Below, piece by piece: positions 24,001 through 33,000 of a stretch of DNA of 64,000 nucleotides. The position numbers are program-made. How positions within the stretch are numbered: position 1 is the stretch's first letter; every line of letters begins with the position of its first letter. Source of the stretch: Microcystaceae cyanobacterium (GTDB taxonomy: Bacteria; Cyanobacteriota; Cyanobacteriia; Cyanobacteriales; Microcystaceae); NCBI GenBank assembly GCA_041746575.1, contig JBGTGT010000040.1:1-64000 (forward strand), read 5' to 3'.

Positions 24001-27000
24001 AGGATAGGGGCGGTAATTCCTGCCTGTCTCAGTTCAATGCCTTCCCCTAGGGTTGCAATCGCTAACCAATCTGCCCCATATTGTAAGGCCGTTTCTGCTA
24101 CTCGAATTGCCCCGTGACCATAGGCATCTGCCTTCACGACTGCCATTAATTCGGTTTTTGGAGCTAATTTTTGCTTAATTTGTCGTACGTTATCAGCTAA
24201 AGCCGCCAAATCTATTTCTATCCATGCCCGTTGGCGAATTACCGCGGATAATTGATAGGTGTGGCATTCTTTATCCCGAATCTGGGTTTCTTGACTCAAC
24301 ACCGATTTACACTCCTGACAAACACACCTTTAAGAATAAGAATAGATTGAAAAATTGGCAACAATCTTTAATGATTAAATCATTTTTCTGGAGTAAGAGA
24401 CTTTTTGATTCTAATTGGAGTTCCATGACAATGATTAAAAAAACGCCACGGAATATTGCGGAAAAGTAACCTTACATCTCCCACAGTTTAATTTCCAAGT
24501 CATCCCCTGCACTCGCTAACCATCGTCCATCGGGACTAAAAGCGATTGTCCGCACTTCACCAATATGATCAGTTAAAGTGTTTATGAGTTCCCCAGAGGG
24601 AAATGTCCAGAGTTTAATCGTATAATCTGCGCTTGCACTCGCGAATTTTGTACCATCGGGATGAATGGCAATACACCAAACCCTTGCAGAATGACGATCT
24701 AGAATCTTAAGGGGTTTTTTAATATTATTAAGATAATCCCAGATTTTAATGGTGTGGTCTGCACTACTACTAACAAGGTAATTATCATGAATACTTAAAG
24801 ATAAAATCTCTCTAAGATGAGCATTATCATTAAAGGCAATGGGTTTTGTGATTGAATCTTTCATCTGCCAAATTTTAATTGTTTTCTGTTGACTACCGCT
24901 GACTAAAAATTGACTATCGGAACTAAAAGCAAGAGCATTCACGCAACTGGAATGACCTTGAAAACTTTGTTGCCAGTCTCCATTTTCAACATTCCATAAT
25001 TTAATTTTGCCACTACTTTGCCCCACAGCAAATCGTTGATTATCTAGACTAATCGGAAGACGATTAACAAGGGTAAGCGGACTCGATGAACTCGAGCGAG
25101 TGACACTTGCTTCGCTAATGAGAGGACGAGTTAATAAGTCCATCTTCCACAATTTAATCTGACTATTAGCACTACCTGTAATTAAAGTTTGACCGTTGGG
25201 ACTTATCCCAATTGCTTTAACCCGATTGGGGTTATCTTGGCTATTGCTATTTTCTAAGTGATTATGACCGACCAATAAGTGTTTCAATTGACCTGTTACT
25301 ATGTCCCAAACTCTCACTGTCTTATCATCACTACTACTGATTAAAAGTTTACTGTCTGGACTAAATGTTAAAGAACGAATCCAGTCTGAATGACCGAAAA
25401 AAGACTTTACGTAACGATTATTTTGAGCAAGATTACCATCCTTTCGCACAGGATTTATAGCAATGGGCGTCGCTTTCTTTTTTAAGATGGCCGTTGAAGA
25501 AAGAAAGGGGATTTCATCTTCGCTTTTTCGCTGAGGAACGTGAATAAACTTTCGTTCATTGCTATGTTTTTCTTGTTGTGTCCGATAGTCTGGTAAATTG
25601 ACATGAAGGGCGTCACATCCGACATCAAAGCAGTTTTCAATGGTCAAATCAGGTTGAAAATACCCTGTATAAAATCCCTTAGAAAAAGCGATCGCTGCTT
25701 GATCTAAAATCGCACTTTTCATGCCAATCGTGTAATTAATATGTTGGGCGATCGCCTCAGCCTGTTTCTCTGAATAACAGGCATTTAATAATACACATTC
25801 CACCCAATGACTTAAGTTGTCAAAAATATGAGACAATGTTTCTGCATCCAGCAGATGGGGTTCGCCGTTCTCTTGCTCAAAAACAATACCCTCCTCCCCT
25901 GTTCCATGACCACTAAAATGAACAATATGGGGTTTAATATCTAGTAATAATTGACTTAAATTTGATGGATTTACCATAGGACGAAGCTCAATGTAATGTT
26001 GCTTTCGATTCGACACTTGATCTCTTGCCTGTTGAATCGTGTAGAATTCTTTCATGATATCCAGTTGATCCGTTTTCTTGGGATTTGCTGTTAAGATTAA
26101 AATGGTTTTTGTCATTTTTTTAGCTCCGAAAAGTTGTTTTAATATCCTTCTGTTTTATGGTTATTCTTCTCGATTGTCTTGTAAATTACTTAATTTTCGA
26201 CTGGTGACATCTGCACTTAATCCCCAAAGAACTAAGCCTAAATAATCAGCAAAAGGATTAGCCCCGAAAGCGCGACCATTTTCGACATAAAGCGAACCCA
26301 TTCCAACAATAGATAAACCAATGAGTAAAACAAGGGAAAGGAGAGGACGAGCAATATAGAAAGTGGCATCTGTTCGGACTTGTTCAGAAACCCCAGAGAG
26401 GGTTATTAAAAAGTGTTGAAAATGCTCCAATCCTGTTTTAGGCGTAATAGAATAAGGGAGATGCTCGATGTTTTGAGTAAGGCGATTAATGGCATCATTT
26501 AAAGTGAAAACTCCGCCCACCCCTCCTCTAGCAGTCGCCATCGAACTATCTAATAAATCATTAATTTTTTGCAGGATTTCTTGACATTTTTCATCTTCTT
26601 TACGAAAGAGATATTGACGGGCTAAGGTAAGATAAGAATTAAGGGATTGACTAAGATCAATATCATTGTTAATTTGTTGTTCAATTCGGGTTAAATCTAT
26701 TAAGATATTTAGACGATTGCGTAGGATTTCTTCTTCTATCTTAGCCGCTTCTAGTTGTTGGCGATTAATCATTTTACGCAGGTCATCTGCCATTAAATTT
26801 AATTCTTTTTTATCGGTCTCAGATAAAGAAGCTTCTCGAATATCTAACTTAAGTCGATTCCATGCTTTTAGGGTTTCCGCTTGCGGTGTTCCTTCTTCGT
26901 TCATATATTTAATTAGACGACCAATGATAATACCCAAAAAGATGACAATCAAAGGAATAAGCGGGCCGACTCTGACATCAATACCAATCGGTAAAATAAA

Positions 27001-30000: not shown

Positions 30001-33000
30001 GGTGCGATCGCAAATCCCATCACCGGAGATTTCGTTAAGGCGGATTCAGTGTCGGGACCATAATCCCCATCTTCGTCAATTTTTGAAGTAGGATGATTTT
30101 TATTCCAGAGTTTTTGAATAGCTGACATTGCCGTACTGCGAAGATCTTTCTTTCCTGCGCCTACATAATCAAAATGAGGGGGATCAGAGGGGCCTAACCA
30201 ACGCCACCCCTGACGTTCGAGAAAAGGTTTCCAGCCATTATGATCTTGAATATCGATCGCTAATCCACTTTGGTGGTTACTACGCCCAGGAGCGGCAACA
30301 ATGGAATAACCACAACCCCGTCCCCACCGAAATAAGAGTAATTGTTGAGCAATCGTCCGATAAGCCGAATTAACGGTCATACTTATGCCTCTTTCTTGAA
30401 TAGCTTTGTGTAAGCCTTCTTTTGCGGGGGGTTGCACAAAGGGATAGGCCGCATCTCCCAAGTTCACCTTCAAATCATCAAAACTGACGAGGGCATCGGG
30501 AACAATGAGGTTCATCTGGTGAATCAACTGCTGAGACAGACCATCCACGATAAAGGTCGAGCATCCGGGAGCAGATCCCAGCAAACCTGTAAAAGCCGCC
30601 CGTGTTGCCACGTCTTCGCTGGCACTTCTGGCTTCTCCCTCATTAATATCTAGACAGGGATCAGTCTCAAAGTCTAGCTCGATAGTATCTAGGATGTTAT
30701 CCTTATGAAAATCGGTCATGTTTTCTCTCCTTAGTGTGAGTAGGTGAACAAAATCAATGAATCAAGAACGCTGATAATTTGCTCTGTTTAACACCGTTTT
30801 TTCTTAAAGACCTAAAGCTTGACGGGTTGCTGAGCCAACTTTTCCGTCCACGTTTAACCCTTTTTGACCCTGAAACGTGCGTACTGCCTGATCAGTCGCT
30901 TGGCCAAAGACGCCATCTGCTCCTGATTCACCGACGCTTAAACCCGACTTGAGCAAAGCCTGTTGCAGTTGTTTGACATCTTCCCCCTTCATCGAAGGAC
31001 TGGTAAGTTGCAAGAGTCGAACCGTGATTTCTGTTTGTTGTGCTTGATCTTGCCAAGATTGGCTTAAAAACAAAGCTTGTTCTGCTTTACGTCGCCGAGT
31101 CAATCCGGCTAAGGCTTGTCCACCTGCTTTATTCCAGCGAGGAAATTCATTGGCTGCTCCTTGAATATCGCCTTGATTGAGCTTTTTGAGCAACGTAGAT
31201 TGAAAAAACGCCCTTGCTCCCACATTGAAAGCAAAAGAGACGAGAGCCGCAAATTGATGCTCATTGAGGGCAATTTTAACAGCGCGGGAAACCGCCTCTT
31301 CAAAATTAGCAAGGTCTTCTCGCAGAAAATCATCCGCCTTCGCAACGGCAATTCTCATTCCTCGAAAAACCCCTTTGGTATGACCATAACCAATCGTCCA
31401 AACGCCTACCCCATCGTCATAGGCTTTTAACTCAATAAGTGAACCCTTTTGAAAAACTTTTTCGGCTAATCCTTCAAACGATTTAATTAAGTTGAGTCCT
31501 TCTGAATTAATTCGTTGTCGAGCGGCGCGGGTTGCCGTTTCCCTTATTTCAGGAACGGGTGTATCAGCCTCTGCGATCTGAAAAGTTGTTGCTGGGGAGA
31601 ATGCCAAAACGTCTTGGAGTCTTTGAGCATCTCCTTGCGTTTCCGTCATTTTAATGGCTGTACCGTCTTCGAGTTCATAAACCCGGCCATCGGCAAAAAT
31701 AAGGAGTGAATAGGACATTTTTGATAATCAGATTAATACGCACTATCAAATACACCAATTATCGTAAGTGAGATTCCGGACATTTATTTAAGGGATTTAT
31801 GATTTTTGTCAAATCTTCAAAAAACAAGATTTTATAAGTCGAAAATTCCCTCATCTCCCCATTTCTCTCCCTTTCGACCCCTCGATTCAGAACAGATAAC
31901 AAAAACTCTATCGCCCCATTAGCAGATTTTAATGCTGTTGATCCTGAATTGTCCGCCCGACAACGATATACTAAGCAATAGCATTGTTAAAACAAGTTTA
32001 CAAAACGCGCTTAGCATTGCTAGCTCTAGTGATACTAAACTTATCAAGAGATTACCCTCAATAAGTAACGAAAATGACTACAGGAATTGACCTTAAAGGC
32101 AGTTTTATTCAATCCCTTACCGATTATGGTGTTCCGTCGGGGTTAGCCAAAACCCTCTGGATTCCGCTACCCTCATTTTTAATGATTATTGGGGCAACTG
32201 TCGGCGTTTTAGTGGTAGTTTGGCTAGAACGTAAGATTTCCGCCGCCGCACAACAGCGCATTGGTCCTGAATATGCTGGTCCTTTAGGCGTTCTTCAACC
32301 CGTTGCCGATGGCATCAAATTGGTCTTAAAAGAAGATATCATCCCCGCTAAAGCCGATCCTTGGTTGTTTACCATTGGTCCAATCTTGGTGGTTCTCCCG
32401 GTCTTTGTTTCTTATTTAATTGTCCCTTTTGGGCAAAATTTAGTAATTACTGACCTTAATATCGGGATTTTCCTCTGGATTGCCCTCTCTAGTATCGCAC
32501 CGATTGGCTTACTGATGTCAGGCTATGCCTCCAACAATAAATATTCTCTATTAGGGGGACTCAGAGCGGCCGCTCAATCTATCAGTTACGAAATTCCCTT
32601 AGCCTTATCGGTGTTGGCAGTAGTCATGATGTCCAATAGCCTTAGTACCATTGACATTGTACAGCAACAGTCCGGTTATGGCATCTTAGGCTGGAATATT
32701 TGGCGACAACCCGTCGGTTTCCTCATTTTTTGGATGGCCGCCTTAGCTGAATGTGAACGGTTACCCTTTGATTTACCCGAAGCGGAAGAAGAACTGGTCG
32801 CCGGTTATCAAACCGAATATGCAGGGATGAAATTTGGTTTATTTTACGTCGGATCTTACGTTAACCTAGTACTATCTGCTTTAGTCGTTGCCATTCTCTA
32901 TTTGGGTGGTTGGGAGTTTCCCATTCCCCTTGATCGCTTGGCAGGTTGGTTAGGCATCAATGAAGCCAATGCGGGATTACAGGTGATTACCGCTTCATTA

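Follow-up and report, generated by a model that had tools for sequence, protein, structure and literature searches.

What role a metacaspase plays beside two peptidoglycan hydrolases is the question raised by a gene cluster in a Microcystaceae cyanobacterium, which lies in the window (the whole stretch of 64,000 nucleotides analysed here, from contig JBGTGT010000040.1). The initial annotation regarded the cluster as a candidate suicide or defence module in which the caspase would activate a lysozyme and an M15 peptidase by removing their pro-segments. Our analysis agrees in part. The caspase-linked cleavage sites and the M15 zymogen were supported, whereas the lysozyme zymogen, the VanY identity of the peptidase, and the defence context were not. 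The cluster is best explained as a caspase-gated envelope-lysis (self-destruct) module derived from domesticated phage-type lysis enzymes, to which we assign a probability of about 0.6. The conserved Arg site on the partners of the caspase suggests a possible programmed self-lysis switch.

Gene cluster and its proteases

The five ORFs are all located on the minus strand (24472..31718 of the contig), with intergenic gaps of 45-106 bp (Table 1), and the cluster is real and intact, with the limits first assigned to it. In Pfam, the lysozyme and the M15 peptidase (VanY/M15) each matched a catalytic and a PG-binding family, the caspase matched Peptidase_C14, the CHAT protein matched WD40, and the membrane protein matched no family. 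Both the CHAT protein and the caspase matched PADLOC models, and the E value earlier given for the caspase (9e-36) was reproduced (9.4e-36). The catalytic motifs were also confirmed to be intact in the caspase (H96/C156), the CHAT protein (H70/C113), the lysozyme (E82/D102/T108), and the M15 peptidase (each residue in 120/120). Both hydrolases lack a signal peptide, as had been claimed; a hydrophobic N-terminus is present in the membrane protein and absent from both hydrolases.

The cluster is flanked by alr and ndhAIGE (names read from the sequences), phage structural genes were not found in these flanks, and neither GC content nor HIP1 density departs much from the genome mean. In a sequencing run that may be its source, DNA contigs span the region unbroken. 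The cluster was absent from the region upstream of ndhA in three of the four relatives read, which does not demonstrate an insertion because gene order in that region is not conserved. In a set of 125 proteins that flank 40 selected loci, AbiEi was the one clear defence gene and the other matches were generic; in this set, the neighbourhood does not support the proposed defence role. At a related locus (L182), the cluster is about 1.3 kb from tail-sheath genes.

The closest solved structures to the caspase are metacaspases. H96, C156, and D154 are each conserved in 60/60 sequences, and we take the residues of this caspase to form a metacaspase-type pocket. Arg163 and Arg169, which follow the catalytic Cys, are each invariant (60/60) and are candidate activation sites. 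PCaspase is reportedly cut at Arg153, seven residues past its catalytic Cys, and Arg163 has the same spacing here. The TRG site previously attributed to the caspase reads ARG in this protein, but TRG is indeed the family consensus (T in 58/60). Non-animal C14 proteases prefer a basic P1, and a 2017 review listed one cyanobacterial caspase homologue as biochemically characterised. The CHAT-WD40 protein is a candidate sensor and initiator protease by analogy with SAVED-CHAT/PCaspase. A short-CHAT profile was matched in 39 of 70 caspase loci, and STAND-WD40/TPR/HEAT sensors replace the WD40 propeller in related loci. The SAVED_CHAT model matched the CHAT part only (E 0.0022), and one known CHAT protease cuts at Leu-Gly, not at Arg.

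Table 1. Features of the caspase gene cluster, in contig coordinates
Feature	Position	Strand	Basis
CHAT (H70/C113) + WD40 propeller, 547 aa	24472..26115	-	Pfam, PADLOC
Membrane protein, 447 aa from ATG (TTG start at 27513)	26161..27504	-	Pfam: no family
Arg codon of membrane-protein Arg-Gly loop	26527-26529	-	
Metacaspase-like C14 protease, 698 aa, H96/C156, C-terminal half unassigned	27593..29689	-	Pfam, PADLOC
M15 zinc peptidase, endolysin-like, 307 aa, C-terminal PG-binding domain, no signal peptide	29796..30719	-	Pfam, PHROG, motif
Acidic 40-aa M15 pro-segment	30600..30719	-	sequence comparison
Arg40 codon of M15, predicted cut after it	30600-30602	-	
Arg31 codon of M15, second site	30627-30629	-	
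C22 codon of M15 (E20-x-C22), candidate zinc switch	30654-30656	-	
GH24 phage-type lysozyme, 304 aa, N-terminal module + Arg linker + catalytic domain (E82, D102, T108) + PG-binding domain, no signal peptide	30804..31718	-	
Arg64 of lysozyme, predicted caspase P1 in exposed coil	31527..31529	-	
Folded 58-aa N-terminal module: three strands, helix, strand	31545..31718	-	predicted structure

Hydrolases and membrane protein as caspase partners

The peptidase labelled M15/VanY by the initial annotation is better read as endolysin-like. Its zinc motif is S-x-H...D plus D-x-x-H as in Ply500, not the E-x-x-H of VanY/VanXY, and its residues 96-306 match an endolysin family (phrog_2649, E 1.7e-31). R121, H149, D156, D179, and H182 are each conserved in 120/120 M15 sequences; LdcB, VanXY, and Ply500 tied in Foldseek.

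The M15 pro-segment is closed by R/K plus a small residue in 48 of 49 caspase-adjacent homologues below 80% identity and in 23/23 below 70%. A control window placed within these segments had it in 1/48, and the genome background is 12%. The site is more than chance. In an even sample of 401 genomes, the M15 family was present in 27, and 30 of the 32 places outside our own genome were read. Eleven of these had both the pro-segment and a caspase, one had the pro-segment on a short contig, two were partial, and the remaining 16 lacked the pro-segment, none of them with a caspase in the stretch read (three stretches were short). The association of pro-segment and site with a neighbouring caspase was thus upheld, caspase-free relatives being without the segment. 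Most of the pro-less enzymes (14/16) begin about at the predicted cut, as does the sole viral relative found, which is also pro-less and without a caspase. M15s with both pro-segment and caspase formed one 81-row group (SH-aLRT 84, quick tree) plus a pair, and the correlation therefore represents one or two evolutionary events. Counted by clade, the M15 cases shrink to one or two, in line with the earlier caveat that kin inflate the counts.

Cys22 of the pro-segment is found in 119/120 M15s, which equals the conservation of the zinc ligands, and 23 sequences contain no other Cys; Glu takes its place in six M15s. The other two cysteines, Cys53 and Cys136, co-vary perfectly (both in 70, neither in 50). 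The invariant, unpaired Cys22 is a candidate cysteine switch. The predicted complex of the pro-segment on the M15 catalytic domain scored 0.53 versus 0.02 for the best control, with a contact agreement of at least 79% and a partner pLDDT of at least 59. This lends weak support: such a mark was reached by 116/157 solved and 2/215 mismatched pairs, but among these, scores of 0.60 or lower comprised only 18 solved pairs plus both mismatches. A Cys-zinc contact was not visible in any of the outputs. Furthermore, the natural pro-less relatives, the candidate Cys switch, and the occurrence of the site on unrelated partners strengthen the reading of this M15 peptidase as a probable zymogen. A Tat-type twin-Arg reading of the Arg sites was ruled out, as the sites are 40-64 residues in and mostly single.

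The lysozyme has the Glu-Asp-Thr triad and T4/P22-type fold of GH24, and its fold resembles that of endolysin 7m5i (Z 22, rmsd 1.6, 147 aligned). Position 64 is R/K in 45/45 lysozymes while its flanking positions vary, and in the predicted structure the coil around Arg64 has a pLDDT of 71 versus about 95 on either side. The R/K site previously assigned to a lysozyme pro-domain therefore stands, but the N-terminus is a folded 58-aa domain and not a pro-peptide. Nor is this module restricted to neighbours of caspases, as had been proposed: it is the Arg linker alone that goes with a caspase. The module is mobile and occurs on caspase-free LD-transpeptidase-like, C39, SLT, GH19, and amidase proteins, in tandem copies in some cyanobacterial cell-wall hydrolases. 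It was present in 25 of the 401 evenly sampled genomes, and all 27 ORFs outside our own genome were examined. A caspase was nearby in 15 of the 18 GH24 carriers (the other three are on short contigs), whereas non-GH24 carriers had neither a caspase (0/9) nor an R/K site (0/9). GH24 enzymes without the module in caspase-free loci had the site in 2/19. A lysozyme zymogen is doubtful because the module is mobile on caspase-free hydrolases and because locus L148 contains a caspase and a close lysozyme with neither module nor site. The module had no family match and no usable Atlas, PHROG, or PDB sequence match, its fold search was filled by matches to the lysozyme domain, and its likeness to another cyanobacterial N-terminal module had a probability of only 10%. 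A metagenome search that started from one module-lysozyme lacking the site yielded catalytic-domain relatives only, none with the module or a caspase.

The membrane protein consists of a signal-like N-terminus, an extracytoplasmic domain, a TM helix, a helical region, the Arg-Gly loop, and a hydrophobic C-terminal hairpin, and it is a candidate holin-like pore. The Arg site is kept in 95/98 short-form membrane proteins; another conserved RG was also noticed in this protein. In related loci, the same Arg site is carried by C39 peptidases in the M15 slot and by a gasdermin tail. Gasdermins were found in 2/70 caspase loci (L130 and L070), and one query did not find any in this genome. The DNA read around 25 of 74 caspase genes contained none of four membrane-breaching candidates (some loci were short).

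Proposed mechanism and alternative explanations

In the proposed mechanism, the CHAT protease would be switched on when the WD40 propeller, or a STAND-WD40/TPR/HEAT sensor found in its place in relatives, binds a signal, and the C14 caspase would be cut at Arg163/Arg169 by CHAT or by itself. The Arg-specific caspase would then cleave the R/K-small-residue loops observed in its operon partners. The M15 endolysin would shed the pro-segment whose Cys22 (Glu in some) may block the catalytic zinc, and a cut would separate the lysozyme from its N-terminal module, which would more probably release the enzyme than unblock it. The freed C-terminal hairpin of the membrane protein may cause a holin-like breach of the inner membrane, through which the muramidase and the peptidase would reach and dissolve the wall. 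In other loci, the membrane may instead be breached by a gasdermin, by a lipase-like hydrolase, or by a small hydrophobic protein. Against this mechanism, caspase-free hydrolases are also without a signal peptide, so that the compartment alone can keep them safe. The most likely purpose would be abortive suicide upon infection or stress. A fuller version, in which a phage-style lysis cassette was rewired into a caspase death programme and one Arg-specific executioner simultaneously opens the membrane, releases the muramidase, and trips a cysteine-switch M15 endolysin, is tentative and in our view rather doubtful. If true, it would provide the first defined substrates of cyanobacterial caspases and a molecular account of how dead cells come to lack a wall; the M15 enzyme would be the first endolysin of its family with a cysteine switch, and the membrane would be opened by a new holin-like protein or by a gasdermin.

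The same switch may serve development or stress instead, with cells dying and losing their wall (filament breakage, necridia, and ghost cells) and no anti-phage role. Clusters are mostly flanked by housekeeping genes rather than defence islands, most named carriers are filamentous genera, and ghost cells without outer membrane and peptidoglycan occur in stressed Anabaena (PMC8894136). However, no link connects the cluster with ghost cells, its distribution is patchy (M15 family in 27/401 and module in 25/401 genomes), the sensors are highly variable NLR-like proteins, and gasdermins occur in some caspase loci (2/70), which makes such a use unlikely. Somewhat less probable still are N-terminal segments that act as sorting or holding tags, where cleavage matures or frees the hydrolases on lysis or export against neighbours or competitors. 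The lysozyme module resembles a targeting or binding tag in being common to many unrelated hydrolases and in tandem, Cys53/Cys136 of M15 imply an oxidising compartment, and tail-sheath genes lie close to the cluster at L182. On the other hand, these genes were noticed at that locus only, an immunity gene is not evident, and the M15 pro-segment is family-specific with its invariant unpaired Cys. The Anabaena paper (PMC8894136) did not describe injection-system cargo.

The Arg sites could also be off-switches or relics, if the caspase degrades active hydrolases or the genes are merely co-regulated and the sites unused. The broad specificity of PCaspase, the counter-example at L148, and the one or two origins behind the M15 correlation would fit this. 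Nevertheless, a cut would leave whole catalytic and PG-binding domains that match natural pro-less enzymes, and several unrelated families bear the site. The R-K exchange, shifting register, and variable flanks furthermore indicate selection on a basic P1, and we consider off-switches or relics very improbable.

Relation to known systems

The peptidoglycan hydrolases are best read as a new class of effector among the known death modules that a protease activates. In the defence modules of Evans et al. (bioRxiv 10.1101/2025.11.14.688446), a caspase-like protease with varied sensors is similarly encoded beside a latent effector, and a caspase/alpha-beta-hydrolase pair has a conserved R-G scissile motif, a precedent for a bacterial caspase that cuts a hydrolase at R-G. 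Both hallmarks of these modules were found here, namely an effector gene conserved beside an active protease and a conserved scissile motif in an exposed loop that matches the protease specificity. In contrast to those modules, several substrates share one protease and wall and membrane would be targeted together. None of the ten families of Evans et al. is a peptidoglycan hydrolase, and their main text contains no instance of 'lysozyme', 'M15', or 'cell wall'. The effectors here (GH24, M15, and an unnamed membrane protein) are outside MBL, alpha/beta hydrolase, Pepco, EACC1, gasdermin, CATASP, MPE, CalpT, and Csx30. Protease-gated death effectors would come to include peptidoglycan hydrolases, an M15 zymogen with a cysteine switch, and one or more new membrane effectors. 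Caspase homologues have long been linked to programmed death in cyanobacteria; the present proposal identifies candidate substrates and cut sites for them, with wall destruction as the outcome, and could explain how dead cells without a wall arise in filaments and blooms.

SAVED-CHAT/PCaspase (Steens et al., bioRxiv 10.1101/2023.06.23.546230) also combines CHAT with a second C14 protease in one cluster, which fits an initiator/executioner pair, but WD40 replaces SAVED here, the substrates are hydrolases and a membrane protein, and none of the five genes is a PCi/PCk/sigma, CRISPR, or cyclase gene of that type. Phage holin-endolysin cassettes (Ply500/LysB4 M15, GH24) likewise combine a membrane protein with a muramidase and a peptidase that lack signal peptides and carry PG-binding domains; unlike these, the cluster is chromosomal, has no flanking phage genes, and would be timed by proteolysis rather than holin triggering. 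Latent LytM has an asparagine switch and pro-MMPs have a cysteine switch; in both, the catalytic zinc is blocked by a side chain of the pro-region until its removal (PMC9662197). Cys22 is a candidate for the same role here, although LytM and the MMPs are secreted enzymes of the M23 and M10 families. Our literature search found no pro-segment switch for any M15 enzyme. The EAD1-fused lysozyme and papain-like peptidase of trypsin/NucA systems (Kaur et al. 2020, PMC7159879) also attack peptidoglycan as effectors of conflict systems rich in proteases, likewise in multicellular bacteria, but these predicted systems use an EAD1 adaptor and trypsin and not caspase cut sites.

Bacterial gasdermin systems (Johnson et al., bioRxiv 10.1101/2021.06.07.447441) share C14/CHAT proteases and WD40/TPR/NACHT sensors with the cluster, and related loci hold a gasdermin. 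They differ in that no gasdermin is beside the protease here, and wall hydrolases are unmentioned in the main text of Johnson et al. The caspase and CHAT match PADLOC models numbered beside bGSDM (PDLC02986-8), probably a single system. At locus L172, with no caspase within 9 kb, a site-bearing membrane protein was found together with a broken gasdermin.

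The caspase-linked hydrolase cluster

The cluster in the window (listed below) was flanked by an alanine racemase gene on one side and ndhAIGE on the other (names assigned by reading the sequences), and homologue labels were cyanobacterial. Co-transcription of the five genes is plausible; a promoter scan of the cluster gave a result no better than chance. All four enzymes retained intact catalytic residues, which extends to CHAT what the initial annotation had reported. A hydrophobic N-terminus was absent from the lysozyme and M15 peptidase and present on the membrane protein.

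Features of the cluster and of related loci from other genomes (L-numbers)
Feature	Position	Strand	Description
Five-ORF cluster	24472-31718	-	co-directional, gaps 45-106 bp; in order: GH24 lysozyme and M15 zinc peptidase (each with a PG-binding domain), C14 protease, no-family membrane protein, CHAT-WD40 protein
Lysozyme insertion	31431-31463	-	11 residues between catalytic Glu and Asp; modelled beta hairpin; shared by L148 and few others
Gasdermin locus	L130:9114-16031		frameshifted lysozyme, M15, caspase, LCAT-like hydrolase, intact bacterial gasdermin
159-aa protein	L020:17822-18301	-	also in 21 more caspase loci; strand opposite to cluster; acidic N-terminus and hydrophobic C-terminal helices, with one or two R/K-small sites
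Long-form membrane protein	L180:8-6410; L181:5168-10807		also L177-L179; Met-Gly-type loop in place of the Arg site; alone or by a different C14 class
Membrane-protein gene divergent from gasdermin pieces	L172:9280-11386 (gasdermin broken); L173:9456-11403, L133:71-634 (both at contig ends)
342-356-aa family	L040:11163-12233; L148:10282-11346		N-terminal RS/RG motif; five caspase-type loci
Trypsin-like protease	L057:8988-10916	-	at cluster end; also L070, L091, L096; C-terminal part amidase-like by eye
Two tail-sheath genes	L182:15498-17998		~1.3 kb downstream of M15-caspase-CHAT-membrane-STAND cluster

The genes, catalytic residues, R/K-small sites, caspase linkage, pro-less relatives and an unpaired invariant cysteine were observed, and their best explanation, with a probability of about 0.6, is a caspase-gated module for envelope self-lysis. 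The WD40 domain would sense a signal, and CHAT would cut the caspase, as SAVED-CHAT cuts PCaspase (Steens, bioRxiv 10.1101/2023.06.23.546230). The caspase would then cut its partners with Arg specificity, in line with the basic P1 preference of non-animal C14 proteases (PMC5756287); an R-G cut of a hydrolase has been described (Evans, bioRxiv 10.1101/2025.11.14.688446). This would unmask the M15 peptidase, and a breach of the membrane would precede lysis. The membrane protein was the only candidate found in this genome for a hydrolase route to the wall, and no membrane-breach candidate was present in the fetched DNA for 25 of 74 caspase genes counted. An M15 peptidase acting on cytoplasmic precursors would need no pore, and such activity would explain a stronger need for a lock than in the lysozyme.

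Although the proposed module works like protease-gated effector modules (Evans), the PCaspase cascade (Steens) and gasdermin cascades (Johnson, bioRxiv 10.1101/2021.06.07.447441), by its effectors it belongs to none of them. The nearest prediction in the sources consulted is an EAD1-fused lysozyme in trypsin systems (PMC7159879). No cluster joining a caspase to peptidoglycan hydrolases was found in the literature searched, mainly listings and the openings of abstracts; loci of this kind may appear in the neighbourhood tables published with Kaur 2020, Evans 2025 and Johnson 2021. The cluster is real and adds a new class of effector to a logic already known. Outside it, the genome harbored another three C14 genes and another six short-CHAT genes (contigs C5, C12, C28, C56, C69, C97, and C98), among which a 1462-aa caspase fusion could serve as a sensor in trans.

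M15 pro-segment and candidate cysteine switch

In the top 120 of 600 M15 homologues the N-terminal segment was short and acidic (mean net charge -6.5), contained E-x-C and had a basic residue right before the catalytic domain. R/K followed by G/A/S occurred within the last eight segment residues in 48 of 49 homologues below 80% identity, compared with 1 of 48 in a control window of the same segments and a genome background of 12%, which bears out the earlier claim of such a site on caspase-linked M15 peptidases. The P1 residue swapped between R and K, and the register shifted among homologues. Among 102 distinct catalytic domains, most from loci chosen by similarity, 68 had a caspase gene in the locus; a script scored segment and site in 65 of these, and inspection revealed the segment in the other three (one with R-L, one with the site farther off). 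The segment was missing from all 16 caspase-free loci, where the script flagged a site twice, each time in a stretch by which the called ORF extended upstream. The remaining 18 loci were too short to judge, including L076, whose acidic segment bore neither Cys nor site.

An even sample of 401 genomes (32 non-own matches, 30 read) was cleaner: 11 M15 peptidases had both segment and caspase, one had the segment on a short contig, two were partial, and 16 lacked the segment, with no caspase in their fetched stretches (three short). The predicted cut matched the approximate start of 14 of these 16, and the other two bore a different N-terminal domain. The single viral relative, on a phage-like contig, was pro-less. 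In a quick tree the segment-bearing proteins formed one 81-row group plus a pair, so the segment-caspase linkage represents one or two evolutionary events. The earlier claim that the segment occurs essentially only beside a caspase held in the even sample (caspase with 11 of 12 segment carriers, the twelfth being on a short contig, and with 0 of 16 that lacked it), but not as a set of independent cases.

Cys22 was present in 119 of 120 M15 proteins (the exception is truncated) and the zinc ligands in all 120. It was the sole cysteine in 23, and Cys53 and Cys136 occurred together in 70 and were jointly missing from 50, a pattern suggestive of a disulfide, which leaves Cys22 unpaired. Glu replaced it in six M15s, the GH19-fusion group, as would be expected of a metal ligand. 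AlphaFold2 gave block means of 83 and 76 for residues 21-40. A predicted complex of residues 10-41 with residues 44-243 and zinc scored 0.53 against 0.02 for the best control (agreement of 79% or more, partner pLDDT of 59 or more). Among solved pairs, 116 of 157 attained the score mark, as did 2 of 215 mismatched pairs; scores of 0.60 or less accounted for only 18 of the solved pairs but for both mismatches. The model, which listed no contacts, weakly supports docking of the segment on the catalytic domain; a Cys22-zinc contact, which would make this residue a switch, is inferred. Precedents are latent LytM, with its asparagine switch, and the MMPs, with their cysteine switch (PMC9662197); no M15 pro-segment switch was found in the literature searched, mainly listings and the openings of abstracts.

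Judged by sequence, the peptidase is endolysin-like: it shares D-x-x-H with Ply500 (its top match) and LysB4, whereas VanY/VanXY have E-x-x-H, and a PHROG endolysin family matched residues 96-306. A fold search did not separate M15 subfamilies. The Cys53/Cys136 pair was kept in 16 of 18 pro-less M15s shown vs. 70 of 120 in the segment group, and pro-less proteins (L084, L094, L097, L101-L117) were often paired with SLT, GH25, GH19 or amidase genes. A protease lock may have taken the place of a redox lock.

The lysozyme module and its linker

Lysozyme position 64 held R or K in all 45 sequences, with variable adjacent columns, and lay in the model's least ordered coil. Residues 1-58 form a folded domain, an undescribed cyanobacterial module that is likewise found at the N-terminus of LD-transpeptidase-like, C39, SLT, GH19 and amidase proteins and of a site-less lysozyme, and also in tandem (L121-L124, L136, L142-L145). 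All 27 non-own ORFs from an even sample of 401 genomes were read: a caspase lay beside 15 of 18 GH24 carriers (the other three on short contigs; one carrier frameshifted); among non-GH24 carriers, caspase and site were each found in 0 of 9. Twenty of 159 GH24 matches, hand-picked across genomes among those without a module hit, served as controls: 2 of 19 from caspase-free loci had the site, and the twentieth, the best-scoring relative (L148), sat in a caspase locus yet lacked module and site. The Arg linker thus tracks the caspase, but the module does not act as a dedicated inhibitor; the cut more probably serves release or relocation. The proposed tie between lysozyme pro-domain and caspase therefore applies to the linker, but not to the module.

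Other partners and possible purpose

Further partners also bore the R/K-small site and so supply the independent evidence. Of the membrane protein's short forms, 95 of 98 had the site in a variable loop ahead of the C-terminal hairpin, against 4 of 22 long forms. Among 11 further loci (site reading excludes the broken copy L182), four short forms stood by caspases and two copies by gasdermin pieces where no caspase was in view, while three long forms stood alone and two copies adjoined a different C14 class. The Met-Gly-type loop of the long form, which stands alone or by that class, hints that the loop site co-varies with protease specificity. A site-bearing PG-binding/C39 peptidase adjoined the lysozyme in four loci without M15, a GH19-M15 fusion occurred in seven loci with no GH24 gene in view, and the L130 gasdermin (E 2e-38 against 7n51) had an Arg-Gly tail. 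Caspase Arg163 and Arg169 were kept in 60 of 60.

Seventy de-duplicated caspase loci, selected via the hydrolases, contained M15 (64), GH24 (55), LCAT-like alpha/beta hydrolase (22), the unnamed 159-aa protein (22), the membrane protein (4), and gasdermin (2). The 159-aa protein, without a match in Pfam, PADLOC or PHROG, is a candidate new protease-gated membrane effector. The unnamed 342-356-aa family had no Pfam or PADLOC match, nor had the C-terminal part of the trypsin-like protease a Pfam match. Caspase companions included caspase-nSTAND1-WD40, CHAT-NACHT, TPR and HEAT proteins (33 of 36 large proteins examined).

Patchy distribution and NLR-like sensors suggest defence, as first proposed, but only one clear defence gene appeared among the 125 proteins flanking 40 selected loci. 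Stressed Anabaena has been observed to shed wall-less ghost cells (PMC8894136).
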